From: an uncultured Gammaproteobacteria bacterium
GTDB taxonomy: Bacteria > Pseudomonadota > Gammaproteobacteria > Arenicellales > Poriferihabitantaceae
Direction of reading: 5' to 3'
Assembly: GCA_947259885.1 (NCBI GenBank)
Contig: CAMYNW010000022.1
Coordinates: 1,871 to 65,870 of the forward strand
Length of the DNA: 64,000 nucleotides
A program made the translations under genes and the position numbers. Below, piece by piece: positions 1 to 62,429 of this stretch. The stretch's first letter is position 1. Every line of letters starts with the position of its first letter. Below the pieces are notes generated by a model that was given only the letters and a program-made list of their open reading frames with translations, searched no databases and was not told the DNA's origin.

Positions 1-3000
1 GTCATCACTTTTTCAGGCGGAACGATCAGCGCGGGCGAACTCGTAACACTTAGTTTTAATATCACGCTGGCAGACCCTATCGCTCTGGACCCGAATGAAG
101 TCATCAGCAATACCTCTGATGTGACCGGCAATTCACTGCCACCGAGCGATCCGAATGCAGACGAACAGCGGACAACCACTGATGAGGATGAAGACGAGTT
201 GTACGGACTGCCGGCAATCATCAAGGAGGTCGCAGACAACTATGATGACGTGCCGCCTGGAGATGCGGATTTTGAAGCGACCAGTCACGCAGGTACAGAT
301 GACAGCCAATTCGATACCACGCTGCCGGATCTTACAATAGGAGAGGTGGTCACCTATGAAGTGACGGTCGTTATACCCAACACCTTTGACGATCCGAATC
401 TCACAACCATCGCAACTTCGATTACGGATACCTTGCCGGTCGGGTTGGGCTTGATTGACGCAAGAGTAGTGGCTATCGGCGGTAACCGCAGTGCTGGTGC
501 CACCGAGGGCGGTGAGTTGGTCAACGATACCAATGCAGCGGTTACCGTTGGACCGGCCAGCAGCGGTCTGGCAGTGGGAAATTCCCTGGCCGCTGGCAGC
601 GCTAACATAAGTGGAACAGTAGGCGGCTCTTCAGTGACTTTCGATTTTGGAGGCCTTGCGGTTAATGATCTCGATGGGGCGGTTGGCGACGAGCAGACCA
701 TTGTGGTGCAGATTGATGCTGTAGTTCTCGATGATGCCAGTAATGCGGCAGGTGACGTGAAAGTCAACTCAGCGCAACTCATCTGGGAGGAGACTGCCGG
801 GGACCCGATTGTTATCGAAGATGATGCGGAAATTGAGATCGTAGAGCCGGAACTGGAAATAACCAAATCTTTTATCGATCCCGCTACCGGAGTGGATGTT
901 TACACCGTAGGCGAAGGAGACCAGGTCGTTGCGGTTTTGAATGTCACCAATAACGGTAGTGCAAATGTCTATGACGTTCTGGTTACTGATGAAATCGATC
1001 TGGTGAACTGGATCATTATCAGCGAACAGGTGACGCCACCCGGTTTTATCTATTCGGTTGAAGATGGCGTCAATGCCGTACCTGCTGATACGGTCACTTA
1101 CACCATGAATTCTTCTCTCGACGCCGCTAATCCGGACAATTTTGTTGCGCCTGGCGAGACGGTGACTATCGAGTTCATTCTTCAATACACGGGTGCCGAT
1201 GATGGCGGAGCGCAGATCGACAACACTGCTGAGGCCACTGGAAATTCTCTTCCAGCAAACGAAGTCCTGGTTGTTCCGGGCCTGGATACTGTTCGTGATA
1301 CCGAAGACGAAGGCTCTGATTTCGTTTATGAGGATCCTGGCCTCGAGAAGGTGGTGATCGAGGGACTTAATCCCGATACCGGCTCCGAACAGCACGATCC
1401 TGCTCTGGTCGATCTGAATATAGGCGAACAGGTAACCTATGAGCTCACCATCACATTACCGGAATCCTTGCTCGATGCGAGTGGCGCAATGATCCCGGTC
1501 ACCGTGAACCTGATTGATGATCTACCGGGTGGTTTTACCGTGGTTGGGGCAGAAATTACCGGTATAGGCAGTGCCGTGACCGCCGCTGACCTAGCGCTAG
1601 GGAATACCCTGACCGTGCTGGATCCGGTAACGCTTGGGCTTGGTGTACCTGCGGCAACTGACGATCCTGATATCTCCTCGGCAGATGTCAATTTCCCCGC
1701 GCCAGCAGTTGGCGACGGTTTTGATGATCAGGTGTTATTCAGTTTTGGCGGGGTCACGGTTGATGACGTTGATAATCTCGCGCTGCAAACCATCACAGTG
1801 CGTGTGACTGCTGTAGTGATGGATGTTGAACCCGAAAACATCGACGGCGAAGTTAGAACTAACGATGCGACGCTCGAGTTTTTTGGTACCCCGACCGGTG
1901 ATCCGGCTAATCCTTTCGACGAGATCGTTCCGATTGAGATCACCGATTCTGCAGATGTGGAAATCGTCGAGCCCGAGCTGGAGATTGAGAAGACTTTCTT
2001 GAATGCCGCGGGCACTGCTGAAGTTGAAAGCGTGACCTCTGGAGATACGATTACAGTTCAATTGACAGTGACTAACACGGGTACCGGCCCGGCTTATGAT
2101 CTGGTGATTGAGGATCCTTTGGATCCAACCAAATTCAATATTTCTACAATATCGCCGGTCTCCACTCCAGCAGCGTTTATGTTCAGTCTGTCGGGGAATA
2201 GCGTGATCTACACGCTTGATTCCGGTGCGGGCACCCCAGGGAGCCCAGCGCATGTGGTGACACCAGGAGAGAGCGTTGTTCTGACTTTTACCGTACAGGT
2301 ACTTGAGGGCATTGGACCTGATACTGCCCTCAACACTGCCACTGTCGATGGAGACTCTGCACCTGGCGACAACCCTTTTGAGCGCGACGAGCCCACTAAG
2401 GAAGGTACCGATGAACTCGCTATCCTGGCGGTGCCGTTACCTCCATCAATCTCCCCCCCTTCTCAAGGTCTTACCGGTTTAGAAGATACCGGAGATTCAG
2501 AAACTCTCGCCGATCAGGTACTGAGGACATATCGATACGACATCTTCGATCGGCTCAGGGATGAGTATGATGAACTGTTTGAACAGATCCGGCGTGATCT
2601 CCAAACCGAACTACCTAAGCTCTCAGCGAACTATATGGCCACCGGGATCACCGAGCACGGATCAAACGTTACGCTGATCGTTTACGATGAAACCGGAGCT
2701 ATTGTTGGCTACTCTTCTACCCTTGCCGATACCGCGGGCAACTGGGCAGTGAGCTTTCCTCAGACCGTTCTGGATAAATCACCTCACCATGTCGAAGTGC
2801 AGGTATCAGCGGCCAGCTATAATGAAAGCACCGCCGGTGAATTTAATACCCGTATATATTTCACTCCCGCCACTGATGCCAGAGTGGCGCATTATAAGGG
2901 CCTCCAGGTCGGCGACGTGATTGCAGAGCGCGCGGATTCGTTGCTCGAGAGCATGCATCAGGGTAACCAGACGCCGTTCGGTTCTCCGGGCGCAAACTGG

Positions 3001-3048
3001 AATCATCCCTATGAGTTCCTTGGTACCGCAAGTATTGAAAACCTCTAA
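1..3048 (+). CDS. C-terminal part of a very large repeat-containing surface/secreted protein (DUF11 / 'conserved repeat domain' type); 5' end lies outside the window
   Basis: Frame 1 is open from base 1 (VITFSGGTISAGELVTLSFNITLADP...) into the listed ORF at 121, so the gene is truncated by the window edge. The signature 'E(I/V)VEPELEI(T/E)K(S/T)F ... VTN(N/T)G(S/T)..(V/A)YD(V/L)V(V/I)(T/E)D' occurs at nt ~835-1000 and ~1960-2110. The protein is acidic, rich in Thr/Val/Asp and has no Cys. The last ~190 aa are non-repeat and include an Ig-like 'GSNVTLIVYDETGAIVGYSSTLADTAGNWAVSFP' segment. Stop TAA is at 3046-3048. Confidence 0.85.
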   Translation, partial: VITFSGGTISAGELVTLSFNITLADPIALDPNEVISNTSDVTGNSLPPSDPNADEQRTTTDEDEDELYGLPAIIKEVADNYDDVPPGDADFEATSHAGTDDSQFDTTLPDLTIGEVVTYEVTVVIPNTFDDPNLTTIATSITDTLPVGLGLIDARVVAIGGNRSAGATEGGELVNDTNAAVTVGPASSGLAVGNSLAAGSANISGTVGGSSVTFDFGGLAVNDLDGAVGDEQTIVVQIDAVVLDDASNAAGDVKVNSAQLIWEETAGDPIVIEDDAEIEIVEPELEITKSFIDPATGVDVYTVGEGDQVVAVLNVTNNGSANVYDVLVTDEIDLVNWIIISEQVTPPGFIYSVEDGVNAVPADTVTYTMNSSLDAANPDNFVAPGETVTIEFILQYTGADDGGAQIDNTAEATGNSLPANEVLVVPGLDTVRDTEDEGSDFVYEDPGLEKVVIEGLNPDTGSEQHDPALVDLNIGEQVTYELTITLPESLLDASGAMIPVTVNLIDDLPGGFTVVGAEITGIGSAVTAADLALGNTLTVLDPVTLGLGVPAATDDPDISSADVNFPAPAVGDGFDDQVLFSFGGVTVDDVDNLALQTITVRVTAVVMDVEPENIDGEVRTNDATLEFFGTPTGDPANPFDEIVPIEITDSADVEIVEPELEIEKTFLNAAGTAEVESVTSGDTITVQLTVTNTGTGPAYDLVIEDPLDPTKFNISTISPVSTPAAFMFSLSGNSVIYTLDSGAGTPGSPAHVVTPGESVVLTFTVQVLEGIGPDTALNTATVDGDSAPGDNPFERDEPTKEGTDELAILAVPLPPSISPPSQGLTGLEDTGDSETLADQVLRTYRYDIFDRLRDEYDELFEQIRRDLQTELPKLSANYMATGITEHGSNVTLIVYDETGAIVGYSSTLADTAGNWAVSFPQTVLDKSPHHVEVQVSAASYNESTAGEFNTRIYFTPATDARVAHYKGLQVGDVIAERADSLLESMHQGNQTPFGSPGANWNHPYEFLGTASIENL
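124..2400 (+). repeat. Intragenic super-repeat of ~1.11 kb (~370 aa) within the adhesin-like gene, about two full copies plus a partial third
   Basis: Unit boundaries recur as 'TGNSLPPSDPNADEQRTTTDEDEDELYGLP' (nt ~124), 'TGNSLPANEVLVVPGLDTVRDTEDEGSDFVYEDPGLE' (nt ~1237) and 'DGDSAPGDNPFERDEPTKEGTDELAILAVP' (nt ~2347). 'VEPELEI.K.F' recurs ~1125 nt apart. The copies are diverged at the DNA level, so the repeat is visible in protein rather than nucleotide sequence. Confidence 0.6.
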
Positions 3049-3067
3049 AATACAAATAGCCTATCTC

Positions 3068-5029
3068 ATGCCCATAAACACCACAGCAAACCAAATCAAA
3101 GCCCTGACGCTCTTTCTCTGGGTGGCATTTTGTCTGGCTACTCCCGTTAATTCGAGTGCAGAGGACTGGAAATTTTCTGAGAGTTCCGCTGAGGAATCAG
3201 CAGTTCTCAAACAAAATTTGAAGCGTCAGTTTGCCGATGATGAGGTGACAGATAATATTGAAGAGAGATATCAGTCGGACGACGAACCGGTGAATTGGCG
3301 AAACAAAGACAAGGAGTTTGATCCTGCGATTATTGATTGGGAGCGAGACGAAGATTTACAGCGCCTGTCACCGATTGTTGAGGATGCAGAGAAGAATGTC
3401 GAACTCATCGGTACTGGCGGCAACCCTTACGCGAGTGACATCAGCGATGGGAAAATGCCTGATAAATTAAACATCTGGTGGGATCGTGAAGTACTCTCAC
3501 AGATGGGCAGGAACACCGTGCCGAATCGCGAAACACCGGAGAGCTTGATCCTCAGAGCGATGGAGCATTCGAGTCAGATCAAGGTCTTTTCTGATGTGCC
3601 CATCATACGAGAAACCGCAGAACTTGAGGCGGTTGGAGAATTTGATCCGATAGCCTATTCCGAGTATCGAATGACCGATCTCGATGAGCCGGTGGGGAGT
3701 ACACTCAAGACCGGTGGTCCAGAGCGTTTTTTCGAGGACGAATGGTTATTCAGGGCAGGTATCAGAAAAAAGTTCGTAACCGGAACCGAGATCGACCTAT
3801 CACAAAGATGGGGAGTTTTAGATAACAATTCAGAATTTCTTGTGCCAAAGGATCAGGGCAATGCAAAAATCGCAATCACCCTCACCCAGCCACTGATCAA
3901 TGGTGCGGGAATCCGCTATAACCGGAGTTTGATCGATGTTGCCCAACTTGATGGCAGCATCGCCCGTGATGAATTCAAGCGCCAAGTTGAATCTCATCTG
4001 CTTGAACTCGTGCGATCCTACTGGGGACTCTACCTGGAGCGCGCTACACTTACACAGCGCAGGGCATTGGTAAGGCGCACTCAGAAGATTGCAGACACCC
4101 TCGAGGCCCGATCAGGTTATGACGTGTCAGAAGTCCAGGCTCAGAGAGTCCGGTCTGAGGTGCTGGTGCGAAAGTCCGATGTAGTGCGAGCTGAATCTGC
4201 GGTTCGAAATGCGGAAGCCCGAATTGTGTCCCTGATCAATGATCCCGAATTCAGTATGCGAGACACGTTTGAGTTGTTACCAGAGACCACACCCATCACA
4301 GCAGCGAGCACGGTAACACATGACATGGCGCTCGCACTTGCGCTCGCAAACCGACCAGAGATCGATCAGGCATTCAAGCAGGCACGTGCCAGTGCGATTC
4401 GAGTTAAGATGACCAGAAACGAACTGCGCCCGGTTCTTAATTTCGTGCTCGGGTATGCCCGTGATGGATTGGCGGGTGAAGGTGATTATAACCAGGCCTT
4501 TGAGAATGAGTTTGACCTTGGTGATGGAAGCTGGATCGCAGGTTTGGTATTTGAAATGCCGCTCGGGAACCGTGTGGCCAAGTCCCGACTCGAAAGACGT
4601 CAAGCAGAAGCTAGACAGTTGGCCTATCAGCTCAAGACAACCGTGGATACTGTGCTGCTGGAGGTTCAGGTTTCGGTTCGAGAAATCCATACGTCATACC
4701 GTGAAATGCATGCTAAGTACACCGCAATGCAGGCGCTGGTAGCTGAAGTCGATAGTCTGGAACAACGTCAGGGAGTTGAACTTGTGGACGGCAACAGCGG
4801 CGGTAGATATCTTGAGAGACTACTGGACGCACAGGATCGGCTGACAGAATCTGAACACGAGTTCCTGAAGAGCATGACGACTTATAATGTAGCGTTAGTA
4901 AATCTGGATCGTGCTACCGGCATGTTTATGCAGACAAATGACATTCAGCCCCGATATTTTGATGATATAGATCCTTATATTGATGGACTTCCCACATACG
5001 AACTGGAAAAAGTCAGTAGTTCACAATAA
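3068..5029 (+). CDS. TolC-family outer-membrane efflux/secretion protein
   Basis: The listed ORF starts at 2921 inside the upstream gene. The in-frame ATG at 3068 gives a signal peptide, 'MPINTTANQIKALTLFLWVAFCLATPVNSSAED'. The body shows the two-fold OEP repeat pattern: 'LLELVRSYWGLYLERATL', 'ALALALANRPEIDQAFKQARAS' and 'LLEVQVSVREIHTSYREM'. Confidence 0.85.
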   Translation: MPINTTANQIKALTLFLWVAFCLATPVNSSAEDWKFSESSAEESAVLKQNLKRQFADDEVTDNIEERYQSDDEPVNWRNKDKEFDPAIIDWERDEDLQRLSPIVEDAEKNVELIGTGGNPYASDISDGKMPDKLNIWWDREVLSQMGRNTVPNRETPESLILRAMEHSSQIKVFSDVPIIRETAELEAVGEFDPIAYSEYRMTDLDEPVGSTLKTGGPERFFEDEWLFRAGIRKKFVTGTEIDLSQRWGVLDNNSEFLVPKDQGNAKIAITLTQPLINGAGIRYNRSLIDVAQLDGSIARDEFKRQVESHLLELVRSYWGLYLERATLTQRRALVRRTQKIADTLEARSGYDVSEVQAQRVRSEVLVRKSDVVRAESAVRNAEARIVSLINDPEFSMRDTFELLPETTPITAASTVTHDMALALALANRPEIDQAFKQARASAIRVKMTRNELRPVLNFVLGYARDGLAGEGDYNQAFENEFDLGDGSWIAGLVFEMPLGNRVAKSRLERRQAEARQLAYQLKTTVDTVLLEVQVSVREIHTSYREMHAKYTAMQALVAEVDSLEQRQGVELVDGNSGGRYLERLLDAQDRLTESEHEFLKSMTTYNVALVNLDRATGMFMQTNDIQPRYFDDIDPYIDGLPTYELEKVSSSQ

Positions 5030-5062
5030 CGACTTCCACAGCGGAGTCTGGCACTTTGTACG

Positions 5063-5857
5063 ATGACATTTCGGGCAAGTATATACTCCCTGATCGCTGT
5101 TTTGAGTCTGGCCTCTCAGCCAGTCTTGTCGTTCGAAGGTTTTCTCGAGCCGTTGCAGACCGTCGATATAACTGCTGCTGAAACAGGTGTTTTGAGCACA
5201 CTCAGTGTTTCAGAAGGTGCTGAAGTAAAAGCTGGCGATGTCCTCGCAGTTCTTGACTCGCGTCTGATTGAAGCTTCTCTGAAAGTAGCCAAGGCCAAGA
5301 AAAACTCAACTGCAACGATCCTGGGAGCCAGTGCGGAGTGGGAGGTTTCAAAAAACAAACTGGCCCAGTTTGAAAAACTGTATGCGGCAGGTAATGCGAG
5401 GAAAGATGAACTGGTGCGGGCAGATCTGGATGAAAAGATCGTGGCGGCGAAACTGGCGCGTGCCAGGGAACAGAAAGAAATCCTGGAGTTGGAGTACCAA
5501 CGAATTCAAATGCAGATCGAGCAACGAATTATCCGCAGCCCGATTAACGGTGTCGCGGTAACCGTGAATAGGGAAGCTGGAGAACTGGTGAGTGCTTCGC
5601 ATGGACCTTTCATCCGTATTGTCGATATATCTCAGCTGAAGTTCATCACTAATATACCCCAGCAGGACGCACGGAAAATTAACCGGGGCGATGAAGTCAG
5701 TATAGGGCTTGATGCGGAAGGGGAAAAGCTGACAGGTAAAGTTGAATATGTCTCTCAGATCATCGATCCAACCAGTAATACCGTTAAAGTCTCGGTGAAT
5801 CTTGAGAATCCTGGCGGCGTCAGAAGTGGAAACGCAGGGCGTCTTTTGCTGCAGTAA
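5063..5857 (+). CDS. HlyD-family periplasmic adaptor (membrane-fusion protein), short form with signal peptide
   Basis: N-terminal signal 'MTFRASIYSLIAVLSLASQPVLS'. Lipoyl-like hairpin 'GVLSTLSVSEGAEVKAGDVLAVLD', a coiled-coil stretch, then 'IRSPINGVAVTVNREAGELV' and a beta-barrel tail 'GKVEYVSQIIDPTSNTVKVSVNLEN'. Confidence 0.85.
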   Translation: MTFRASIYSLIAVLSLASQPVLSFEGFLEPLQTVDITAAETGVLSTLSVSEGAEVKAGDVLAVLDSRLIEASLKVAKAKKNSTATILGASAEWEVSKNKLAQFEKLYAAGNARKDELVRADLDEKIVAAKLARAREQKEILELEYQRIQMQIEQRIIRSPINGVAVTVNREAGELVSASHGPFIRIVDISQLKFITNIPQQDARKINRGDEVSIGLDAEGEKLTGKVEYVSQIIDPTSNTVKVSVNLENPGGVRSGNAGRLLLQ

Positions 5858-5935
5858 ACTATCTGTGAACTTGCAGGCGGCCGTAATGAAAATTTATTGT
5901 TTGATTTTCAGAATCTGTTGTAAAAATGCTTACCG

Positions 5936-7903
5936 ATGCAGGGAGTTTCCCGATCTCGCAAAGCCCATACCGCGTGTTATCGCATGCGAAAAATGAATAC
6001 ATCTTTAAAACCTTCCATTAAATCTCAGAAGGCCGATGCGGAGTCATCGGTTGCGGAGCAATTGGCGCGAACTGATGTACCAAAATTTGACAGTCAAACT
6101 ACCTATGCCCAGCTGTTAAGGTTGACCGAGACGCTGAGCACGCGCCAGGAATTTCTCCTTTCTTTACTACAGTATGCAGTCAGCGTGTCCCACGCCCATG
6201 GCGGGGTTTATTACTTGCTTGATGATTCCGGGGTGCTGAAGCTAGGTCCGAGACTTTTATCTCGGGAGCTTATGTATCAGGTTCCTGGGGCGATGGAGAA
6301 TATCAATGCTCTTGCAAAGGACTGTCTCAATAAAGGTTACAGTATCAGTGGCGCAATTGACCCTGCAGAATCGATTCAAGCTGTAATGTCTCCTGTCAGC
6401 TGCGGTGATCAAGGTGCTGAAGTTATTTGTCTAGTGGTCAATGTAGAGGCGTCACAGAAAAGCTACTGGAGTCTTTTTGTTCAGCTGCTTGCAGGTTACG
6501 TTAACTTGTGGGAGCAATCGCTATCGAATCGTCGGCTGCTCGAAGAGACCACATTTACCGCTGGTCTGGTCGAAATTATCAGTGAACTTAACCATACAGA
6601 AGATACGGAGAAGGCACACATTAATTTCACTTCGCAGCTAAAGCATCTCACGCAAGCTGACAGGGTGGCACTTGGCTTATCCCGACGCAGCCGGTCAGGG
6701 TTAAGTTTGGTGCAGCTTTCTGATGGGGATGATGTAAACAAACGTGGCGAATTTACTCGTTTGTTGGAGCTGTGCTTCGAAGAATCCATGGATTTTGGAG
6801 AACCCGTTGTTTGGCCAGAGGATAATGATAGAAACGATCGTGGTTTGTTTGGCGGCCACAAGCGTTTCAGTGAATTTGTCGAAGCCAAAAGCATGTTGTC
6901 GGTACCTCTGGTCGGGACAGACGATGAGCGAACCGGCGTGGTGACGCTTTGGTGGAGCGATAAAGTTCCGAATAATCAGATAAGACATTCTATGGGCGCT
7001 GCAGCAGAGCCGCTGGCAAATGCGATCGAGGCAAGAGAACGCTTCAAAGGATCTGCCTATCACAAGCTTTTGTTCAAGCGACACCGCAATCGGACAAAAG
7101 TTTTGATGTTTCTGCTGATGATTGCAGTAACCGGCACCATGTTTTTTCCGATCACTCACCGGATTACCGGCGATGTTTTGATTCAGCCAGTTGGTCAGCG
7201 AATAGTTTCAACTTCGTTCGATGCGATCCTCGATGAAGTTTTCGTGGATACGGGTGATCTGGTAAAGAAAGGAGATAAGCTCGCTGAATTTGATGGCCGA
7301 GAGTTGAAGTGGCAGCTGAACAGTCTCGAAGCCGAAGCTGCAAGTGCAAAGAAGACCAAAGATCTGAAGCTCGCGGAAAGGGATGCTCAGGGTGCGCAAG
7401 TCGCGCGACTCGACATGGAACGCATTGACCTGCAGGGAGAGTTGCTTCGTCACTACATTGCAAACCTTGAAGTCCGATCCCCGATAAGCGGCATTATTCT
7501 AAGTGGAGACTTAGAGCAGAGACGCGGCAGTCTGATCTCTAAAGGACAATCAATATTCGAGATCGCCCCGCTCGACAATGTCGAAGCAGAAATAAGACTA
7601 TCAGCGCTCGATTTCAAACATATTGGACCCGATATGCCCGCTGAAATTTCTCTTGAAGCTCTTCCAGGTGAAAACTGGCCGGTGACCCTGGAGCGGGTCC
7701 AGCCACGGGCCATGGTGCTCGATTCAAAATCGGTGTTTATTGGCCGTGAGAGTATTAACAACGCTGATAAAAGAATACGACCGGGGATGCGTGGTGCGGT
7801 CTCGATCGCAGGAGAGAAAAGGCGCATTGGTTGGGTTTTGTTTCATCGCGCGTATGACAAGGTTGCGTTATGGTTGCGCGCTAAGTTTGGCTTGAAGGCG
7901 TGA
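5936..7903 (+). CDS. HlyD-family adaptor with a long cytoplasmic N-terminal region (two GAF-like segments) and one TM helix
   Basis: The C-terminal half is HlyD-like: 'GDVLIQPVGQRIVSTSFDAILDEVFVDTGDLVKKGDKLAEFD', a coiled coil, 'VRSPISGIILSGDLEQRRGSLISKGQSIFEIAP' and 'RPGMRGAVSI'. A TM helix 'VLMFLLMIAVTGTMFFPI' precedes it. The N-terminal ~380 aa contains two alpha/beta segments ending in 'EVICLVVNVE' and 'TGVVTLWW', which resemble GAF folds; this is inference. The start is uncertain, with in-frame ATGs at 5936, 5984 and 5993 and no good SD for any of them. Confidence 0.8.
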   Translation: MQGVSRSRKAHTACYRMRKMNTSLKPSIKSQKADAESSVAEQLARTDVPKFDSQTTYAQLLRLTETLSTRQEFLLSLLQYAVSVSHAHGGVYYLLDDSGVLKLGPRLLSRELMYQVPGAMENINALAKDCLNKGYSISGAIDPAESIQAVMSPVSCGDQGAEVICLVVNVEASQKSYWSLFVQLLAGYVNLWEQSLSNRRLLEETTFTAGLVEIISELNHTEDTEKAHINFTSQLKHLTQADRVALGLSRRSRSGLSLVQLSDGDDVNKRGEFTRLLELCFEESMDFGEPVVWPEDNDRNDRGLFGGHKRFSEFVEAKSMLSVPLVGTDDERTGVVTLWWSDKVPNNQIRHSMGAAAEPLANAIEARERFKGSAYHKLLFKRHRNRTKVLMFLLMIAVTGTMFFPITHRITGDVLIQPVGQRIVSTSFDAILDEVFVDTGDLVKKGDKLAEFDGRELKWQLNSLEAEAASAKKTKDLKLAERDAQGAQVARLDMERIDLQGELLRHYIANLEVRSPISGIILSGDLEQRRGSLISKGQSIFEIAPLDNVEAEIRLSALDFKHIGPDMPAEISLEALPGENWPVTLERVQPRAMVLDSKSVFIGRESINNADKRIRPGMRGAVSIAGEKRRIGWVLFHRAYDKVALWLRAKFGLKA

Positions 7904-10047
7904 TAAACACAGATAAAAGCGTCAGAGAACTGAACCGTCTGAAGCTCAAGATCAGATCGGATGTTTCCATTTCAGCCAGGACAGATGGCGCTGAGCGCAC
8001 ATTTCTAATTGAAGATTCAATCGGCGGTAAATTTTATCGCGTGGGTGAATCGGAGTATCGATTTATAAGTCTGCTCGATGGCAGCGCGACCATAGGTGAA
8101 ATACTTATCCAACTGGCGCGAGATCTGGGAGAGGCCGCCTTGACCGAGCAAGACGCGGCGGTGATCGTGAACTGGCTATCTGAGTCGCGTTTATTGCAGC
8201 CAGAGTCTGGGATCGAAGCAGATCAGATAATCGACGCACGAAGCAGCAGGGACAGTAATCGCTTTCTGCGATGGTTGAACCCGTTATTCATAAAGATCCC
8301 ATTGTGTAATCCGGATCGCTTTCTAGAGTGGTGTAAACCTCTTTCCCGGATTCTTTACTCTCCTACTGCATTTATTATCTGGTGTGTAATCGTTGTCAGT
8401 GGTCTTTATCAGGTGGTTGTCAACGCCAGCCGGTTTTCTACAGAAGCTTCAGGCGTACTTGCGGTCTCAAACTGGGCATTGCTGCTGATAGTCTGGATAG
8501 TGCTCAAAGTGATCCATGAGCTCTCACACGGATTGGTATGCAAACATTTTGGCGGGAGTGTTAACGAAGCCGGAGTGATAATGATACTGCTGGTGCCAAT
8601 AGGGTATGTGAACGCCACAAGTTCCTGGGGATTCTCTTCTCGCTGGCGACGAATCTATACGGCCGTTGCGGGAATCTATGTGGAATTTTTTATCGCCGCT
8701 GTTGCAGCGTGGGTTTGGGTCGGATCAGAACCTGGTTTGCTGCGTGCAGTCTGCTACAACACGATTGTTATCGCTAGTATTAATACGCTGTTGTTCAACG
8801 CAAACCCCCTGATGAAGTTTGACGGCTACTATGTTTTTTCCGATCTGGTCAAAATCCCTAATCTGTATCTTGAGGGCGTATCCTATGTGAAGTATCTGGC
8901 GCGCAGATATTTGCTCGGTTTGCCAATACGTTTTACAGGTCGAAGTGCCCGAGAAGATATTGTTATCCGCGTCTACGGTGTTTTGTCATTGATATGGAGG
9001 ATACTCGTGATTGCCACACTGCTGATTGCAGCAAGTGCGTTGTTTCACGGGCTTGGCCTGGTCATGGCCTTTCTGGCCCTCTGTGTAATAGTTGTGTTGC
9101 CGGGGCTGAAATTCTTGCGCTATCTGGTTTCTGGAAATCAGTACGAAAAACCACGTGCCTTTCGATTCGTCACCATGATCTCGGTGGTGGCTTTAATTAT
9201 ATATTTTGGTCTGTTCAGTTTTAAGTGGAACCAGTCAATTGCCGCGCATGGACTTGTTGAGTTTTCCTCGATCAAAGAGTACCGCACGATCTATCCTGGA
9301 GAGATACGGGCGATATTGGTCGAAGATGGCGAGGAAGTATCTGCAGGCCAAAGACTAGTTGACCTGTCGAATCCGGAGTTGGTAGTTCAGGTCGCCACTA
9401 AGCGAAACGAGCTGGAGAAAATCAGGCTCGAGCGAAAGGAGCTTTTACGTCAGAATAAGCTCGCCGCCTATCAGGCCACCAAGGAGCGTGAAACTGCCGC
9501 AAGGCGCCAGCTACTGGAGTTTGAGCAAATGCTGGCTGGACTGGAATTGACGGCGGAGTCAGAAGGGGTCGTGATTTTAAACAACCCAGATTTGTTGGTT
9601 GGCAGATACGTGAGAAATTCAGACGTACTGCTCTCGATCGCGCATTCACTGGAAAAAGAACTGCGCATTGCGCTACCGCAACGTGATGTGAGTCGTCTGC
9701 AGTTGCAGGAGGATGACAGATTTAGGTTTCTGCTACTCGGCGGTGATGCTATAGAAGCAGAAATCCAAACGATATCGCCGAGCGCCACCGATCTATTAGT
9801 CAATCCTGTCCTCACCGCGGTCGGGGGTGGACCTCTTGCAGTGCTCTCGGAAGATTCGAATCGGTTCAGGATGACAGAACCACACTTCTGGATTATCGCT
9901 AGCATTATCAACAGCACCCGAGATGTCCTCGGAGCCGGGGAGCGGGGTTTGGCGGTGTTACAGGGTGTACCTACATCTATTGGCTATCTCTGGATACGAT
10001 CTGTGAAAGACTGGATCGAGGGAATTACCAATCAGATCAAAAGATAG
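7900..10047 (+). CDS. Triple fusion: PqqD-like (RRE-like) N-terminal domain, site-2-protease family M50 membrane metalloprotease, and HlyD-like C-terminal domain
   Basis: The GTG start at 7900 overlaps the upstream stop (GTGA). The N-terminus 'YRFISLLDGSATIGEILIQLARDLGEAALTEQDAAVIVNWLSESRLL' resembles PqqD-type peptide-binding domains. The zinc motif HELSH lies at nt 8515-8529. The second S2P motif N-x2-P-x4-DG ('NANPLMKFDG') lies at nt 8797-8826. Multiple TM helices follow. The C-terminal part has coiled-coil and barrel elements: 'GEEVSAGQRLVDLSNPELVVQVATKRNELEKIRLERKELLRQNKL' and 'ESEGVVILNNPDLLVGRYV'. Confidence 0.85.
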   Translation: MINTDKSVRELNRLKLKIRSDVSISARTDGAERTFLIEDSIGGKFYRVGESEYRFISLLDGSATIGEILIQLARDLGEAALTEQDAAVIVNWLSESRLLQPESGIEADQIIDARSSRDSNRFLRWLNPLFIKIPLCNPDRFLEWCKPLSRILYSPTAFIIWCVIVVSGLYQVVVNASRFSTEASGVLAVSNWALLLIVWIVLKVIHELSHGLVCKHFGGSVNEAGVIMILLVPIGYVNATSSWGFSSRWRRIYTAVAGIYVEFFIAAVAAWVWVGSEPGLLRAVCYNTIVIASINTLLFNANPLMKFDGYYVFSDLVKIPNLYLEGVSYVKYLARRYLLGLPIRFTGRSAREDIVIRVYGVLSLIWRILVIATLLIAASALFHGLGLVMAFLALCVIVVLPGLKFLRYLVSGNQYEKPRAFRFVTMISVVALIIYFGLFSFKWNQSIAAHGLVEFSSIKEYRTIYPGEIRAILVEDGEEVSAGQRLVDLSNPELVVQVATKRNELEKIRLERKELLRQNKLAAYQATKERETAARRQLLEFEQMLAGLELTAESEGVVILNNPDLLVGRYVRNSDVLLSIAHSLEKELRIALPQRDVSRLQLQEDDRFRFLLLGGDAIEAEIQTISPSATDLLVNPVLTAVGGGPLAVLSEDSNRFRMTEPHFWIIASIINSTRDVLGAGERGLAVLQGVPTSIGYLWIRSVKDWIEGITNQIKR

Positions 10048-10063
10048 GTAATTACAGGGTAGC

Positions 10064-11968
10064 GTGAGAGTATGGCACCAATTATGGAGAAGGGACCCGG
10101 CCGGTTTCACTGCGTCTGACTTTTCGCTTGTGGAGAGGGTCAATAGTCTTTATAGCGAGCTTAACAGCCAGTCTGATTCAGAGCTTTGTGAACGGTTTCA
10201 AGCGCTCCGAAAACGCGCTGCAGATCTTACGCAGAGCCAACTGACCTTATCTGACGATCAGTTCATTGCCAATGGGTTTTCCTGTATTAAGGAAGCGGGT
10301 CGGCGTGCACTGAATATGGAACTGTATGATGTTCAGATTCTGGCTGGTATAGCGATGGTGCGTGGAAACGTGGCTGAGATGGCGACGGGAGAAGGAAAGA
10401 CACTGGTCGCGGCGTTGCCGGCCTGCGTATTCGCATTGTGGGGGAAAGGGGTGCATATTATGACCACTAATGCCTATCTGGCCCAACGTGATTGTGAGCT
10501 TATGGGGCCTCTATATCGAATGCTGGGGCTGAATGTGGGTCTTATATTCAGCCAAATGCCTCGATCTGAAAAGCACGATGCGTACCTGGCAGATATAACG
10601 TATGGCGTCGGCAATGAATTTGGTTTTGATTATTTGCGCGATCAGTCGATGCTGCACCAGATGCCCAAGGCGGCTATTGGAAGCGCGTATCGTGATCGTT
10701 TGCGCGGCCAAACTGACGAGAAGATAAAACCTCTGCAGCGTGGACACGCTTTCGCAGTGATTGATGAGGCAGATAGCGTCATGATCGATGATGCCAATTC
10801 AACATTGATTCTGAGTGGGTCATCGGGATTGCCGCACCCACAACCAGAACCTTATAAGGTGGCGAGAGCGATATTCGAAGAACTGGTTGAGAACAAAGAC
10901 TACGTGGTCGCCGATACTGAGAAGAAAGTTTCGCTTTCCAGTGCTGGTATGGAAAAAATAGTCCAGCGCCTCGATCGCGATACACGCCTGTCGTTGACAA
11001 GGCCATGGGAGACATACGTCGTTAATGCAATCTATACGGATAGATTTTACAGTCTAGACATCGACTACATCATTAAAGATGAAGCGATTCAGATAATCGA
11101 TGAGTCGACCGGACGCCGTTTGGAGGACCGCAGCTGGAGTAACGGATTGCACCAGGCGGTCGAGGCGAAAGAAGGGGTGCCGATAACGGAAGAGAGTGCA
11201 TCTTATCTGAAAATATCTCGACAGCGTTTTTTTCAATCTTACCAAGTACCCTGCAGCATGACCGGAACTGCACTTGATTGCGAACAGGAGTTCAAGCGGT
11301 TTTATCATATGAGTGTCAAGAAAGTTCCGTTACACAAGAAGAGCCGCAGGAAACACCTGCCAATTAAGTTCTTCGCCAGCCGAGAGGAAAAGCGGAAAGG
11401 AGTTTCGGCGCTGGTTCGTAAAGTCCACTTAGCTGGAATCCCGATTTTGATCGGCACACGGAATGTAAAGGATAGCGAGAGTCTCTCGGAATTGATCCAC
11501 ACAGGTGGAATCAAATGTAATGTTTTGAATGCCAGGCATGATCAATTTGAAGCAGAAATAATTAAAAAGGCTGGTAAGAAATTCGCGGTTACAGTGGCGA
11601 CCAATATGGCCGGGCGCGGAACGGATATTCCAATAGATAAAGAAGTTGAGGATCTCGGAGGTTTATTTGTGATTGTTTTCGAGCCACACCTGTCACGGCG
11701 TCTGGATCGTCAGTTTATTGGGAGATGTGCGCGACAGGGTGAACCGGGAACAGCTGTAATGTTATCGTGTCAGGACGATGAGATTTTTCAGATCGCCAGA
11801 TTCACCGGGTGGTCTTCCCTGAAAAGAAACAAACAATGGGACCCTGAGAAGCTTGCGATACAAATCCGGGGGCTGCAATCAAAACTTGATGCCGAGGCTT
11901 ATTTGAACAGACAGCAATTGATGCGGCGAGATAAGTGGCAAGCGGAACTGCTGAACAAACTTACCTAG
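10064..11968 (+). CDS. SecA-like ATPase (accessory SecA paralog), C-terminally truncated relative to canonical SecA
   Basis: The start lies 16 nt after the upstream stop. SecA motor motifs are present: Walker A 'MATGEGKTLVAALPA', DEAD-like 'VIDEADSVMIDDANSTLILSG', 'ATNMAGRGTDI' and 'RRLDRQFIGRCARQGEPG'. The N-terminus 'ERVNSLYSELNSQSDSELCERF' parallels that of SecA. The protein is only 634 aa and ends shortly after the start of the scaffold helix ('LQSKLDAEAYLNRQQLMRRDKWQAELL'). Confidence 0.85.
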   Translation: MRVWHQLWRRDPAGFTASDFSLVERVNSLYSELNSQSDSELCERFQALRKRAADLTQSQLTLSDDQFIANGFSCIKEAGRRALNMELYDVQILAGIAMVRGNVAEMATGEGKTLVAALPACVFALWGKGVHIMTTNAYLAQRDCELMGPLYRMLGLNVGLIFSQMPRSEKHDAYLADITYGVGNEFGFDYLRDQSMLHQMPKAAIGSAYRDRLRGQTDEKIKPLQRGHAFAVIDEADSVMIDDANSTLILSGSSGLPHPQPEPYKVARAIFEELVENKDYVVADTEKKVSLSSAGMEKIVQRLDRDTRLSLTRPWETYVVNAIYTDRFYSLDIDYIIKDEAIQIIDESTGRRLEDRSWSNGLHQAVEAKEGVPITEESASYLKISRQRFFQSYQVPCSMTGTALDCEQEFKRFYHMSVKKVPLHKKSRRKHLPIKFFASREEKRKGVSALVRKVHLAGIPILIGTRNVKDSESLSELIHTGGIKCNVLNARHDQFEAEIIKKAGKKFAVTVATNMAGRGTDIPIDKEVEDLGGLFVIVFEPHLSRRLDRQFIGRCARQGEPGTAVMLSCQDDEIFQIARFTGWSSLKRNKQWDPEKLAIQIRGLQSKLDAEAYLNRQQLMRRDKWQAELLNKLT

Positions 11969-12124: not shown

Positions 12125-13099
12125 ATGGAGAACCATACGGAGATAGCCTATGCTTATAAATGCGCTGCATTCCCTTATTCAGAATATAATCAGGAAATGG
12201 TTTCGGGCAATCTTAAAGTAACTCGCCTCGCCGGTGCTCTGGGTGCGGAAGTAAAAGGCATGCCACTAGCAGATGTTGATGCTGCGCAAGTTGATATTGT
12301 TAAATCTCTGTTGCTGGAGCACCAGGTTTTGTTCTTTCCAGATCAATTTCTAGGCGTTGACGCACATGTCAATCTAGGGCGCTATTTCGGCATATTGGAA
12401 TCGCACCCAAATCTAAATAATCCTTACACTGAACATCCGGAAATTTTCGAGCTTGCAGCCAGTCACGGCGGTGTTGCAGATGAGTGGCACAGCGACATTT
12501 CATTTCAAGCCAACCCCTCCATCATGTCTATATTGAACATGATTAAATGCCCTGATGTTGGTGGTGATACGCTTTGGTCGAGCACCTACGCCGCATACGA
12601 AGGTTTGTCTGCTCCGATGAAAGATCTCCTGGACGGGCTGACCGCTCTCCATGACGCCGCCCCGCATTGTAAACCAGATATTACCGCTATCCATCCGGTA
12701 GTCCGTATTCATCCAGAAACGAACCGAAAGGCCATATTCGTTAATGAACACTTTACCCGGCGGATCGTCGAACTTAGCCATCAAGAAAGCAGACTACTCC
12801 TTGAGTATTTAATTGGCTGGATCGCCAGCCCTCGATTTACCGTCCGCTATCATTGGCAGCAGGGTGCCATAGCCATCTGGGACAACCGCTGTACTCAGCA
12901 CTATGTTTTGAGCGATTTTGATGAGGAAAGGATTATTCAAAGGGTCACAGTGATGGGGGATAACCCAAGACCAGCGGGGCCGCCTCGTTGGGAACCGTTT
13001 ACACGAACAGAAGTAACGGGTGCAACAAGTCGGTTTGACCAGCAGTTGAATAAACATTTAGGAAGGGAAGTTAACACCCTAGCAAGTAATAAAAAGTAA
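12125..13099 (+). CDS. TauD/TfdA-family Fe(II)/2-oxoglutarate-dependent dioxygenase
   Basis: 'ADEWHSDISFQANPSIMSILNMIKCPDVGGDTLWSS' carries the HxD facial-triad region. 'AIWDNRCTQHYVLSDF' is the typical C-terminal TauD motif. Confidence 0.85.
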   Translation: MENHTEIAYAYKCAAFPYSEYNQEMVSGNLKVTRLAGALGAEVKGMPLADVDAAQVDIVKSLLLEHQVLFFPDQFLGVDAHVNLGRYFGILESHPNLNNPYTEHPEIFELAASHGGVADEWHSDISFQANPSIMSILNMIKCPDVGGDTLWSSTYAAYEGLSAPMKDLLDGLTALHDAAPHCKPDITAIHPVVRIHPETNRKAIFVNEHFTRRIVELSHQESRLLLEYLIGWIASPRFTVRYHWQQGAIAIWDNRCTQHYVLSDFDEERIIQRVTVMGDNPRPAGPPRWEPFTRTEVTGATSRFDQQLNKHLGREVNTLASNKK

Positions 13100-13895
13100 A
13101 CACGGTTGATTGGTACTGAAAACTGTATCCAAAACTGAGTGGTTTTTATCGGAAGCGAATGGTTACGTCAAAACTGATACTTGAGACCGCTGCCCAATAG
13201 AAAGTGCGAAAGAATATTGACACTACCTACGTCAACGTTGTTCTCCATTTGCGCAATTTACGTATCTGCTCACTCTAGGAAAATAAAATAATTCTAGTTA
13301 CCCGACATTCGTGAAGATAATCGAAATGACTAAGTTTGCTCCGAAGCGGACTTTCATTGGAAGATGAAAACGAGTTGTTGCACTGCAACCGCAAAGTCTC
13401 AGAACGGTCCTTTTCCGCCATTAACTGAATTTCATTGAAATGCGGTTCTATGGTTCAGCCCTTAAAAAATGGACCACTATGAAAGTCCACTAGCTCTAAG
13501 TTTGACTTGGAGACTGTGAAAAGCTGACATTCCAATCATAGCCATTTGTTAAGGAGCCTCTGATTAAAACTGGACGAATCATGTTGAGGTTTAAAATGAT
13601 CGAGTTCGAGGCGGGAAACGCACGTAATAGCAGGGCTATTGCGAAGTTTTCGAAATAGGTCATTTTGGGCTCAAATTGATCGTTCATGTTTTGATCAGAG
13701 GTTCCTTAAGTATTTCGTTCGTAAAAAGTGTAAATTACCACAGAAATCTCAGCTCCTAAAGTCGCGACTCTTTCGATAATTCTACGCTCTATTTTCAAGT
13801 CAAGGTTAGCTCCCGAATCTCCGCTCTTGAACCCAACAGCAAAAGTCCTAAAATATCACCAACCCCATTCAAACCATAACATGCAGGGAAATTCA

Positions 13896-15767
13896 ATGAC
13901 GAATAAGTCGAAAACCGTAGTGTTTGACAGTAACCCCGGCCGCAACGCCCAAACTTATGGTGTGGCGCGTGAGCTCGGCACTGATATGGATTTGATCCAC
14001 GAACCATCTGTGGGTGTCATGGGTACTAAGGGCGATAGTCAATGTTATTTGGGTGTGCAGCGAAAGGTCGAAGCCATTCACGAAAATCTGCGCCAACGTC
14101 TTGGGCGCGGTGACGGTCAGATGCCAATGCGTTTGGTACAACCTGAATATACGGTTGCGACCTCGGATGGTATGCGTAACGGTACACGGGAAATGCGCTA
14201 TTCACTCATTGGTCGTGAGGTCACCCATGATACGGTTTGCGAACACCTGAGCGCGAGTGGCCTGGAAGGAACAATCGCGGTGGTTGCCTGTGACAAACCA
14301 CCGGTTGGCACTTTGGCCGGCATCCTTGAGCATGATCGACCTGCGATCATCATGTCTGATGGCCCGATCCGGCCCGGTAAAGATTCAGTAACAGCAGAGT
14401 CCATCGATATCATTAGTGGCTTCCAGGTGGCGGGTAGTCATGATACCGAGCTTAAAGACCGTATCGCTCGCGAAGCATGCCCGGGATATGGAAGTTGCGG
14501 CGGCATCTTTACCTATAACACGATGCAGACTTTTATTGCGGTTGTCGGAATGCAGCCGCTGCACATGGTTGCGCCGCCGTCAGACGACCCGCGCCGGATT
14601 AACGAATTCCCGGAACAGCTTGTTACCTACTTGAAAGGCATGATTGAACGGGGTCAAACGCCGCGCGACATCGTCACCCGTGATGCCATCCGCAACGGCG
14701 TAATTGTTGCCATGGCGATCGGCGGATCAACAAATGTCCTGTTACATGCGCCCGAAATTGCGAGAGCGGCGGGATTTCGCAGTTTTTCTGAAAACATTAT
14801 GTCGCCAGAAGAATTTAATCACTTGTCACAGTATGTGGTCCCTGTTTTAACCGACGCTCGCCCATACGGTAAATACTCCATGGTCGACATCGATGAAAAA
14901 GGCGGTGTGCAAGTAATCATCAAAGAGTTAATGGATGCAGGGCTGTTAAATGGCGATACGGAAACCTGCACCGGCGAAACACTGGCCGAGCAAATCGCGC
15001 GGCTCAATACTGCGGGACCAGATGGCACCGTGGTGTATACCGTGGAGAAACCATTCAAACCAACTGGAGGCCTGCGGGTACTAGGCGGCAATCTTTCGCC
15101 TGAATTCAGCGCAGTACTTAAACTGGCCGGCGTTGAAGGCGGGCTGGAAAACAATCGCTTTGTTGGCAAAGCTCGCATCTTTAACGGGGAACAGGGGCTG
15201 CTCGATGCACTGGAACTAACACCGGAAAGTTTCAGCAATCACGATATGGTAATTGTGCGCTATGAAGGGCCTTGTGGTGCACCAGGGATGCCGGAAATGC
15301 TTGACTCAACTTCCCGTATCACAACGCTTTGCCGTGAGAAAAACATTGTGGTAGGCATGATGACCGATGCCCGTTTTTCCGGTGGCTCTGTCGGCCTAGT
15401 AATCGGCCACGTTGGGCCAGAAGCCGCGTTGGGTGGACCAATTGCCCTTGTCGAAGATGGTGATGAGATTATCGTGGATCTCGACGCCAATCAGATCAAC
15501 TGCTCGTCATTGGATGACACGGCAATACTCAATACGCGTAAAGCGGCATGGGAAAAAATGGTTGCTGATAATGGTGGAATGCATCCCGCCTGTGGCGAAG
15601 TCGATACCCGTTTATTAAACCGGATGCGAATGTCTGCAGTTTCCGCAGTCTACGGAGCCGGAATGCATCCGGATCGAGTCCTATGGGTGCCACAACCGCG
15701 TGAAGCAGGAAAAAGTGGTTTCGTACCACACAACAAATATCGTGAGGGATCTCAGAAAGTGTTCTAA
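13896..15767 (+). CDS. IlvD/Edd-family dehydratase (dihydroxy-acid / sugar-acid dehydratase type)
   Basis: Family motifs: 'VACDKPPVGTLAG', 'CPGYGSCGGIFTYNTMQTFIAVVGMQ' (Fe-S cluster Cys region), 'MAIGGSTNVLLHAPEIA', 'DARFSGGSVGLVIGHVGPEAALGGPIALVEDGDEI'. I chose the ATG at 13896 because it follows 'cagggaa'. In-frame ATGs also occur at 13827 and 13881. Confidence 0.85.
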   Translation: MTNKSKTVVFDSNPGRNAQTYGVARELGTDMDLIHEPSVGVMGTKGDSQCYLGVQRKVEAIHENLRQRLGRGDGQMPMRLVQPEYTVATSDGMRNGTREMRYSLIGREVTHDTVCEHLSASGLEGTIAVVACDKPPVGTLAGILEHDRPAIIMSDGPIRPGKDSVTAESIDIISGFQVAGSHDTELKDRIAREACPGYGSCGGIFTYNTMQTFIAVVGMQPLHMVAPPSDDPRRINEFPEQLVTYLKGMIERGQTPRDIVTRDAIRNGVIVAMAIGGSTNVLLHAPEIARAAGFRSFSENIMSPEEFNHLSQYVVPVLTDARPYGKYSMVDIDEKGGVQVIIKELMDAGLLNGDTETCTGETLAEQIARLNTAGPDGTVVYTVEKPFKPTGGLRVLGGNLSPEFSAVLKLAGVEGGLENNRFVGKARIFNGEQGLLDALELTPESFSNHDMVIVRYEGPCGAPGMPEMLDSTSRITTLCREKNIVVGMMTDARFSGGSVGLVIGHVGPEAALGGPIALVEDGDEIIVDLDANQINCSSLDDTAILNTRKAAWEKMVADNGGMHPACGEVDTRLLNRMRMSAVSAVYGAGMHPDRVLWVPQPREAGKSGFVPHNKYREGSQKVF

Positions 15768-15874
15768 GGCAGCATGACCAGGTTGCTAGAACAAGTGGTT
15801 GTCCGAGTTTTGCTGTGGATTCAGATGGTAGATGCAACATACTAATCTTTTGTTAAAGAGAGGGAGTGTTGCAG

Positions 15875-16006
15875 ATGAAATACAGACGACGGATTCATTA
15901 CACGGATACTCAGAAAACCCAGTTGTCAGATCAGGTTGAAACTGGATATCCATACCGGTTGATCAGATCCCAACTAATACATATGAGTAGTGTTACATAT
16001 GAGTAG
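15875..16006 (+). pseudogene. 43-codon ORF, possibly the decayed N-terminal stub of an IS30-like transposase or HTH protein
   Basis: ATG at 15875 follows 'agagagggag'. The peptide 'MKYRRRIHYTDTQKTQLSDQVETGY...' resembles the '...RRR.HY(S/T)..QK...WDRW..G.S' N-termini I associate with IS30-family transposases. The HTH continuation is lost, and the ORF ends inside a duplicated 12-mer ACATATGAGTAG (15979-15990 and 15995-16006). Recognition is weak and by eye only. Confidence 0.25.
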
Positions 16007-16299
16007 ACCTCTTCGTCATGAAATAGTGCTTTTACTATTAATGTGCGCATAGATCCGGTCAGCGCTAATTCATACAGTGCCGCTTGAGGAATCAAAAGTG
16101 TGCTCCAGAGTTGATTTATTTGCTCGAATGATTACGTATTGTGTCTTGCCCCGTATACGGAGTCCTGCCGTTCAGTTAGTTTTGAGTTATTTCTTTTAAG
16201 CATATATATTTTAGGATTGAATATATAATTTCATTCCGATAAAGTTGGCTTCGAGTAGGCGAATACTTCCGCAAGAACTATGAAAACAGGAGCAGCAGA

Positions 16300-57776: not shown

Positions 57777-57805
57777 GCTTCAGTCAATAGGTGCAGACCA
57801 GACCG

Positions 57806-62122: not shown

Positions 62123-62137
62123 ATCGATGAGCTCGGC

Positions 62138-62377: not shown

Positions 62378-62429
62378 ATTGTGCTGTGTGAGATTAAGAA
62401 CAAAATATCTTTTAACGGGCGCCGCGAAT

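Follow-up and report, generated by a model that had tools for sequence, protein, structure and literature searches.

In the LapA/LapG/LapD system a giant repeat adhesin passes through a TolC-type duct, and an N-terminal element together with a dedicated protease decides its retention. In peptidase-containing ABC transporters (PCATs), a cytoplasm-facing peptidase domain binds the N-terminal leader and removes it as the cargo enters the exporter. Here we describe a gene at positions 7900-10047 (forward strand) of a 64,000-nucleotide stretch of DNA from an uncultured gammaproteobacterium (contig CAMYNW010000022.1, positions 1,871 to 65,870; the window, below). Its product joins a domain resembling the recognition element (RRE) in enzymes acting on peptides that are ribosomally synthesized and modified post-translationally (RiPPs), an intact site-2 protease (S2P) of family M50 and an HlyD-type periplasmic adaptor, or membrane fusion protein (MFP). 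We tentatively propose that the family of this M50-MFP fusion is the missing receptor and signal peptidase for an orphan export signal (L-E-x-L-E-x-R-x-L-F/L-[DS]-A) that giant surface proteins carry in Planctomycetes, Verrucomicrobia and many Proteobacteria; joined by a SecA paralogue, another two adaptors and TolC, the family would form a distinct one-step, SecA-powered, protease-gated, type-I-like pathway that reuses RiPP-type leader recognition.

The closest described locus is the 'secondary SecA_DEAD' locus outlined in silico by Kamneva, Poudel and Ward in 2015 (PLoS One, PMC4452313), which comprises the same genes, GAF-HlyD, Peptidase_M50-HlyD, a SecA_DEAD paralogue, a short HlyD/biotin-lipoyl protein and sometimes OEP/TolC, with the same spread over Planctomycetes, Verrucomicrobia and Proteobacteria. 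All five components are present here, contiguous and on one strand, at 3011-11968. Kamneva et al. suggested that SecA supplies the ATPase and that the M50 protein is the component in the membrane; their study was purely comparative, called the M50 similarity 'weak' and left the role 'completely unknown'. The RRE-like domain, the catalytic invariance, the probable cargo and the export signal, all given here, were not part of that study. Since the architecture had already been described in silico, the fusion gene belongs to a family that was known but not characterised, and the system is a distinct variant of tripartite, type-I-like secretion. In its searched part, a 2021 review covering tripartite and type I systems says nothing of this locus, and a preprint on the giant proteins of Chlorochromatium concerns an ordinary type I secretion system (T1SS).

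A second relative is MpaP, which the daptide paper describes as an intramembrane site-2 protease with an RRE fused to its N-terminal side and as an RRE-dependent leader peptidase. MpaP (NF041824) and the present protein have their parts in the same order, the cytoplasmic recognition domain first and the intramembrane HExxH protease after it; MpaP, however, has no C-terminal adaptor and serves short peptides in Gram-positive bacteria, and none of the daptide genes (MpaA/B/C/D/M) is found in the window operon. With T1SSs and PCATs (HlyBD-TolC, CvaAB-TolC, PCAT1) the locus has in common a periplasmic adaptor and a TolC-like duct, and giant, acidic, Cys-free repeat adhesins are also T1SS cargo. 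In contrast to those exporters, it has a SecA paralogue as motor, a membrane-embedded metalloprotease in place of a C39 cysteine protease, and three adaptors, and its probable cargo differs from that of a canonical T1SS in the N-terminal signal, seen on related cargo proteins, and in having neither RTX repeats nor a C-terminal signal. By analogy, the proposed logic resembles that of a peptidase-containing ABC exporter built from other parts, for cargo thousands of residues long and of megadalton scale. The Lap proteins have no sequence relationship to those described here; LapG is a cysteine protease of the periplasm, and LapA is secreted by an ABC-type T1SS.

The fusion protein and its three parts

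The gene is an uninterrupted open reading frame (ORF) with a GTG start that encodes 715 residues, divided as follows.

7900..10047, forward strand: RRE-like/S2P (M50)/MFP fusion protein (ORF, Pfam, alignment, AlphaFold2 (AF2), Foldseek, profile search)
7963..8199, forward strand: RRE-like winged-helix domain, predicted to be cytoplasmic, residues 22-100 (AF2, Foldseek, N-terminal match to daptide_HExxH)
8362..9216, forward strand: seven-transmembrane (TM) site-2-protease core, residues 155-439 (motifs, alignment, AF2, weak mjS2P match)
9217..10044, forward strand: predicted periplasmic adaptor, residues 440-715, with lipoyl domain, alpha-hairpin (492-546) and beta-barrel (Foldseek, Pfam HlyD_D23 and HlyD_3)

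The fusion is real and common, and is no assembly artefact. A profile search of 1.84 billion cluster representatives (50% identity) returned 6,023 proteins with the whole architecture at E<=1e-30; the best 150 of these span 664-753 residues, with almost all at 700-750, and almost all align over their full length. With one genome scanned per species, at least 590 encoding places were found. Such genes currently carry labels such as 'efflux RND transporter periplasmic adaptor subunit', 'peptidase M50' or 'putative peptide zinc metalloprotease'.

Both sequence hallmarks of an M50 protease are present, HExxH in a TM helix and NxxPxxxxDG in another membrane helix, the latter motif supplying the third zinc ligand (Asp) in site-2 proteases. 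HELSH (residues 206-210, nucleotides 8515-8529) lies within TM2, and NANPLMKFDG (residues 300-309, nucleotides 8797-8826) sits where helix 280-300 (TM4) ends on the cytoplasmic side, exactly where a first-pass annotation made from the sequence had placed these motifs when it called them intact. That description extends to the family: H206, E207, H210, N300, N302, P303, D308 and G309 are invariant in 49/49 full-length relatives of 32-88% identity, so the protease site is intact and under selection across the whole family. Pfam Peptidase_M50 (PF02163) scores 29.7 bits against a gathering score of 27.2, with only the first part of the model covered, and the sole match of the whole protein to PDB sequences is a weak one to mjS2P (3b4r; residues 192-324, E 0.2).

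The AF2 model of the full protein, built on the family alignment, has a mean predicted local distance difference test (pLDDT) score of 82.6 and places seven long hydrophobic helices at residues 155-174, 189-216, 248-275, 280-300, 350-381, 385-411 and 420-439. With the N-terminal domain taken as inside, Lys and Arg residues number 7 and 2 in the cytoplasmic loops and 1, 0 and 0 in the periplasmic loops. Seven TM helices and this positive-inside distribution give an N-in, C-out orientation and hence a periplasmic adaptor; the RRE-like domain is predicted to be cytoplasmic and the active site to lie near the cytoplasmic leaflet, in agreement with the topology claimed in the first-pass annotation. 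A strongly conserved segment between the RRE-like domain and TM1, LNPLFxKxPLxNPDR (residues 127-142, window 8278-8325), has N127 and P138 invariant, P134 and D139 nearly so, and a short strand predicted at residues 131-136; it could join the membrane-proximal beta-hairpin of the protease (residues 224-237).

The adaptor part is recognised by Pfam above gathering scores (HlyD_D23, 34 versus 30 bits; HlyD_3, 28.7 versus 22.2 bits), and Foldseek matches it to MacA (3fpp, E 3e-11) as well as MexA and AcrA (E ~1e-11 to 1e-9). The lipoyl-hairpin-barrel signature that had been read in the last ~240 residues is borne out, but the adaptor is longer, at ~275 residues.

The N-terminal domain, modelled alone by AF2 with pLDDT >94 over residues 11-100, is predicted to form three beta-strands (22-29, 32-39, 44-48) followed by three alpha-helices (50-57, 65-79, 83-95), a beta3-alpha3 winged helix with the topology of PqqD-type RREs. 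A domain is thus present where the annotation had drawn one at residues ~15-105, although the folded span in the model is nearer residues 22-95; the string quoted from it is found at residues 55-99 (nucleotides 8062-8196), as the annotation had it. Among the best Foldseek matches in the PDB are the lasso-peptide RREs solved with leader, TbiB1 (5v1v/5v1u) and B1 (6jx3), with target-normalised TM-scores of 0.72-0.76 and a root-mean-square deviation of ~3 A, and the RRE-containing CteB and ThcOx are also matched. A profile of the domain found nothing among PDB sequences at E<=10.

At the level of sequence profiles, residues 30-400 align end to end with the NCBIfam model daptide_HExxH (NF041824; E 1.6e-53), at 182 bits against the curated equivalog cut-off of 300, and the isolated N-terminal domain matches the N-terminal part of that model in 23/25 family members. 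A match to the YydH/LiaK model (E 1e-7) was also obtained. Conservation of the RRE-like domain equals that of the protease core and exceeds that of the adaptor; within the domain it is highest in beta3, the edge at which RREs usually bind peptides, and in alpha1. On the model and the profile alignment, the domain is an RRE-type fold homologous to the established RRE-S2P fusion. The first-pass annotation had named an N-terminal domain unlike PqqD and a cytoplasmic HlyD part as outcomes that would speak against it; both were checked, and the results favour the annotation.

The operon and its probable cargo

The fusion gene is the fifth in an operon of overlapping or tightly spaced genes on one strand, in the order giant gene, TolC, short MFP, GAF-MFP, M50-MFP and SecA-like, with intergenic gaps of 16-78 nucleotides. 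Its partners are these.

1..3048, forward strand: giant surface protein, C-terminal 1015 residues, the probable cargo; the gene leaves the window at the left end
3011..5029, forward strand: TolC-like outer-membrane factor (Pfam OEP 7e-24, TIGR01844)
5063..5857, forward strand: short periplasmic adaptor (MFP), 264 residues, with an N-terminal signal-peptide-like segment (HlyD_D23 1.3e-18; RND_mfp 112.6 bits versus 94.9)
5993..7903, forward strand: GAF-MFP, with a GAF-like cytoplasmic part (~385 residues), one TM helix (residues 387-408 of 655) and a periplasmic adaptor (HlyD_D23 6e-19; GAF_2 weak)
10064..11968, forward strand: truncated SecA paralogue, 634 residues, with nucleotide-binding domain 1 (NBD1), preprotein cross-linking domain (PPXD) and NBD2 only (SecA_DEAD 1e-88, SecA_PP_bind, P-loop_SecA)

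The public call of the TolC-like gene starts at 3011, and an alternative start at 3068 is followed by a signal-peptide-like segment; the stop codon of GAF-MFP overlaps the start of the fusion gene by 4 nucleotides. The SecA paralogue keeps the motifs GEGKT109, DEAD234 and TNMAGRG513 and the preprotein cross-linking domain. It aligns to residues 16-644 of Thermotoga maritima SecA (of ~820-870) and ends where the scaffold helix begins, and so is without the wing domain, the two-helix finger and the C-terminal tail, the SecY-engaging parts. No ABC-transporter gene is present in the operon or in the syntenic loci, the SecA paralogue being there instead. A consensus scan found no terminator 3' of the SecA paralogue.

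The module also occurs in Planctomycetota, Verrucomicrobiota, Gammaproteobacteria and others. Its components were counted within 10 kb of the M50-MFP gene at 86 related loci, many of them on short contigs.

GAF-type adaptor: 75/86 loci
Short adaptor: 60/86 loci
Giant ORF or DUF4347 ORF: 42/86 loci
TolC: 39/86 loci
SecA paralogue: 30/86 loci

The first gene of the operon runs off the window, as its frame 1 is without a stop from nucleotide 1 to 3045. In a public gene call (GCA_049669845.1) it encodes at least 3463 residues and is partial, ending at the contig end. The giant protein contains isopeptide-forming, DUF11/CLIPPER and DUF7507 repeats; its visible 1015 residues include 0 Cys, 17% Asp plus Glu and 2.6% Lys plus Arg, a Cys-free acidic composition typical of proteins secreted unfolded, and show no HemolysinCabind match that would indicate RTX repeats. 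Syntenic giant genes carry the domain DUF4347 at three loci (L002, L007 and L008); DUF4347-bearing giant neighbours measure 3876-4157 residues in other Gammaproteobacteria and 2564 residues in the planctomycete Lignipirellula cremea. A search with the 1015-residue C-terminal part for the full giant protein gave 6 distant partial matches and no N-terminus; the protein collection seems to contain only short fragments of such giants. This adjacent giant, Cys-free, acidic surface protein, and no small peptide, is most likely the cargo.

DUF4347 itself shows a conserved His...Cys pattern (..hhHhhSHG..G and GDhhhYGC, e.g. ALHIISHGNDG and GDILIYGCDLA), drawn from the ORF at L014:14898-15660, from other DUF4347 ORFs (L005, L009, L011 and more) and from proteins P0129-P0246; a Dolichospermum DUF4347 protein has Gln for the His and Ser for the Cys. 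The best Pfam match after DUF4347 is Peptidase_C80 (E 0.15), over the His-Cys region. In MARTX and large clostridial toxins, Peptidase_C80 is the cysteine protease domain that performs self-cleavage. From this pattern and match, DUF4347 may be an autoprocessing domain of clan-CD-like type, placed N-terminally in giant secreted proteins. Chain G of PDB entry 9qpe, 201 residues named 'DUF4347 domain-containing protein', is a weak match (E 0.2-0.6); no chain of the entry was matched by the M50-MFP protein, and the literature searches turned up no paper on the entry.

The giant gene, the GAF-MFP gene and the fusion gene have 99-100% matches among the contigs of a sediment metatranscriptome, which suggests expression in situ, although DNA carry-over may contribute. 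At window 8102-8250, a minor contig in the sediment run (depth 2.3 versus ~8.5) has 6 differences in the part that encodes the RRE-like domain, indicating a co-existing strain variant. Downstream of the SecA paralogue lie genes for a TauD-family dioxygenase and for dihydroxy-acid-dehydratase-like and salicylyl-CoA 5-hydroxylase-like proteins (window 12125-13099 and 13827-18585). The TauD gene is found in the public contig of the same organism and is absent from the other loci, which places it outside the conserved module. Three non-ribosomal peptide synthetase genes (C-A-T...TE, C-A-T and A) at 52014-63905 on the reverse strand, ~40 kb away, are unrelated.

A leader motif shared by giant neighbours

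Upstream of the DUF4347 domain, related giant proteins carry the motif L-E-x-R-x-L-F-[DS]-[AG], in fuller form [KR]..L-E-x-L-E-[PED]-R-x-L-F-[DS]-[AG]-x-P. Examples are IEQLEERALFDAVP, LAELEDRILMSATP, ESLEDRVLFDGVP and FEALEPRVLFDAAP, and, from Arenicella, LNLESRMMFDGAAP. In the six-frame ORFs of the loci (858,006 residues) the motif expressed as a regular expression gave 25 matches against 0.65 in shuffles. Every one of the 25 lies N-terminally in a large neighbouring ORF, often one cut off by the end of the locus; DUF4347 ORFs hold 23 of them, and the remaining two are in giant ORFs that stand immediately downstream of the M50-adaptor gene in Verrucomicrobia. These leaders begin with a short basic stretch and have no hydrophobic core, and are therefore no Sec signal peptides. 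Within the 64-kb window the motif was not found elsewhere.

The protein collection yielded the motif in 74/116 DUF4347 N-terminal fragments, at a median start of residue 19, and most fragments without it begin directly with the domain. Beyond Planctomycetes it occurs in Gammaproteobacteria, Pseudomonas putida among them, in Rhizobiaceae and in a metagenome-assembled genome of Bacteroidota. DUF4347 proteins thus fall into two classes, one leader-bearing and the other leaderless, with the domain starting at residues ~5-30, and some carry RTX repeats, which suggests other export routes.

An N-terminal export signal of planctomycetes, 'RRLxxExLExRxLLA', was proposed by Studholme et al. in 2004, as relayed in a 2021 proteome study (PMC8567305), which found it on 8/10 of the longest proteins of Tuwongella immobilis. 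The leaders described here have the same core, L-E-x-L-E-x-R-x-L-[LF]-[SD]-A, preceded by a short basic N-terminus, and like it lack any hydrophobic Sec-type stretch; on this resemblance the leader motif is the 'RRLxxExLExRxLLA' signal. No paper in the literature searched assigns machinery to it.

Looking in the reverse direction, from five leader-bearing DUF4347 proteins to their surroundings, module genes were found within 10 kb in 4/5, as listed with one leaderless control.

P0130, leader (L089): GAF-MFP, M50-MFP, SecA-like, short MFP
P0193, leader (L090): TolC, short MFP, GAF-MFP, M50-MFP (frameshifted)
P0171, leader (L092): TolC, short MFP, with the contig end next
P0189, leader, Pseudomonas putida isolate (L093): short MFP, GAF-like MFP, M50-MFP
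P0224, leader (L091): giant gene longer than the fetched range
P0223, leaderless control, Vreelandella titanicae (L094): no module genes within 10 kb

The P. putida locus comes from a cultivable isolate (GCA_023572415.1, contig JAMKDT010000064.1). Its short MFP, GAF-like MFP and M50-MFP lie ~4 kb upstream of the DUF4347 protein with the leader ALEPRMMFDGA; genes for Asp/Asn hydroxylase-, sulfotransferase- and acetyltransferase-like proteins stand between, and no SecA paralogue was found in the stretch fetched. The leaderless DUF4347 gene of V. titanicae adjoins Collar, DUF6916 and other giant genes.

A proposed secretion machine and its rivals

The fusion is probably the central inner-membrane subunit of an envelope-spanning, type-I-like secretion machine with a SecA paralogue as motor and no ABC transporter. 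In such a machine the RRE-like domain would bind the giant protein's N-terminal leader on the cytoplasmic side, and the SecA paralogue, by means of its preprotein clamp and ATP, would feed the unfolded chain into a passage through the membrane. Oligomerised S2P domains may form this passage, a suggestion made because adaptors normally assemble as rings. The zinc site near the cytoplasmic leaflet would then remove the leader, either as a commitment step or as a release step, and the three adaptors, those of the fusion, GAF-MFP and short MFP, would build a periplasmic duct to the TolC-like protein through which the chain reaches the surface; the GAF domain probably regulates from the cytoplasm. 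From this arrangement we infer a 'protease-gated exporter'.

Several results tell against this proposal, beginning with the N-terminal domain. Its top Foldseek matches are to a domain found in the carbamoyltransferases GdmN/NovN, which is no RRE, and models of PqqD recognise neither it nor its relatives with significance: the N-terminal 150 residues have no match to Pfam PF05402, TIGR03859 reaches E 0.14 on the fusion protein, and among 25 family N-terminal domains the best PqqD value is E 0.034, in 1/25. One homologue, from L089, has a weak precomputed PqqD match. The claim of a PqqD-type winged helix therefore holds for the RRE fold and for homology to the RRE of MpaP, as indicated by AF2, Foldseek and daptide_HExxH, but not for a PqqD profile match, and on sequence profiles the domain is no demonstrable member of Pfam PqqD. 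The topology consists of predictions from hydropathy, AF2 helices and the positive-inside rule. Within 10 kb, and with many contigs short, the giant gene is near only about half of the loci and the SecA paralogue near about a third. The leader and DUF4347 of the window's own giant protein are presumed from syntenic relatives only, its N-terminus lying beyond both the window and the contig end, and Pfam PF07595, the planctomycete export signal, gave no match to 8 leader N-termini in the Pfam copy used. Leader binding is assigned to the RRE-like domain, rather than to the PPXD of SecA or the GAF domain, from homology and co-occurrence. We know of no precedent for a channel of S2P domains. Searches of the literature on the system, DUF4347 and the motif found no experimental study of the family; the relevant papers found were the 2015 comparative analysis and the 2021 Tuwongella proteome study.

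The rival that survives best, though we consider it unlikely, shares its parts with the secretion machine and differs in the timing and purpose of cleavage: the leader would anchor a secreted adhesin, which S2P cleavage would free later under the control of GAF-MFP, much as LapG and LapD act on LapA. An adhesin-like repeat protein as cargo, a sensory GAF domain fused to the second adaptor in 75/86 loci, and a protease site predicted on the cytoplasmic side, where an N-terminal anchor would sit, all accord with it. No cyclic di-GMP or other signalling genes are conserved in the module, however, and the present data do not separate delayed release from leader removal during translocation.

Less probable still is RiPP-type maturation and export, in which the RRE-like domain would bind a small precursor, the S2P cut its leader, and the adaptor and TolC export the peptide. 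The closest annotated relatives of residues 30-400 are indeed RiPP leader peptidases (daptide_HExxH at 1.6e-53, YydH/LiaK at 1e-7), and the N-terminal domain has the predicted RRE fold, but 182 bits is far under the daptide cut-off of 300. Gaps of 16-78 nucleotides leave no room for a precursor gene in the operon, and no RiPP-modifying enzyme is conserved, the downstream TauD gene being found only in this organism; because precursor and tailoring genes are lacking, we set this explanation aside. The motor, moreover, is the paralogue of a polypeptide translocase with a preprotein-binding domain, and the conserved neighbour is a giant protein with its own leader. The RiPP-like peptide cargo implied by the first-pass annotation is thus probably wrong, given the giant leader-bearing neighbour and an operon in which there is neither a small ORF nor a conserved modifying enzyme.

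A role in scaffolding or quality control, with the S2P clearing stalled substrate and the winged helix docking the SecA paralogue or the GAF domain, is similarly improbable. Winged helices make many protein-protein contacts and the top Foldseek matches are not RREs, and the M50 part was proposed by Kamneva et al. as a pore substitute (PMC4452313). Against such a role, the N-terminal domain is homologous, by its profile matches, to the RRE part of NF041824, a family founded on MpaP, which is described as an RRE-dependent leader peptidase; a strongly conserved leader co-occurs with the module; and conservation of the domain peaks at beta3 and alpha1, the former being the canonical peptide-binding edge of an RRE. 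Bacterial M50 proteases are best known for classical regulated intramembrane proteolysis. This reading, in which the S2P would cleave an anti-sigma factor or other membrane regulator and the HlyD part would be incidental, is very improbable and was rejected, as no sigma or anti-sigma gene occurs in any inspected neighbourhood and both the adaptor fusion and the linkage to TolC, the SecA-like protein and two adaptors are conserved.

Neither the link to the orphan signal nor the reuse of an RRE-type domain is reported in the literature searched. The secretion-machine model is directly testable, because the P. putida isolate has the M50-MFP module near a leader-bearing DUF4347 protein, and annotation of such genes would improve. 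If the model is true, it joins a secretion-like gene cluster noticed in 2015, and now seen in at least 590 places and ~6,000 protein clusters, to a function, and supplies the machinery for the export motif described in 2004 on the largest planctomycete proteins. An RRE, so far tied to peptide natural products, would have been reused to read a protein secretion signal, and megadalton adhesins would cross two membranes by means of a SecA-type motor and an intramembrane metalloprotease, with no ABC transporter.

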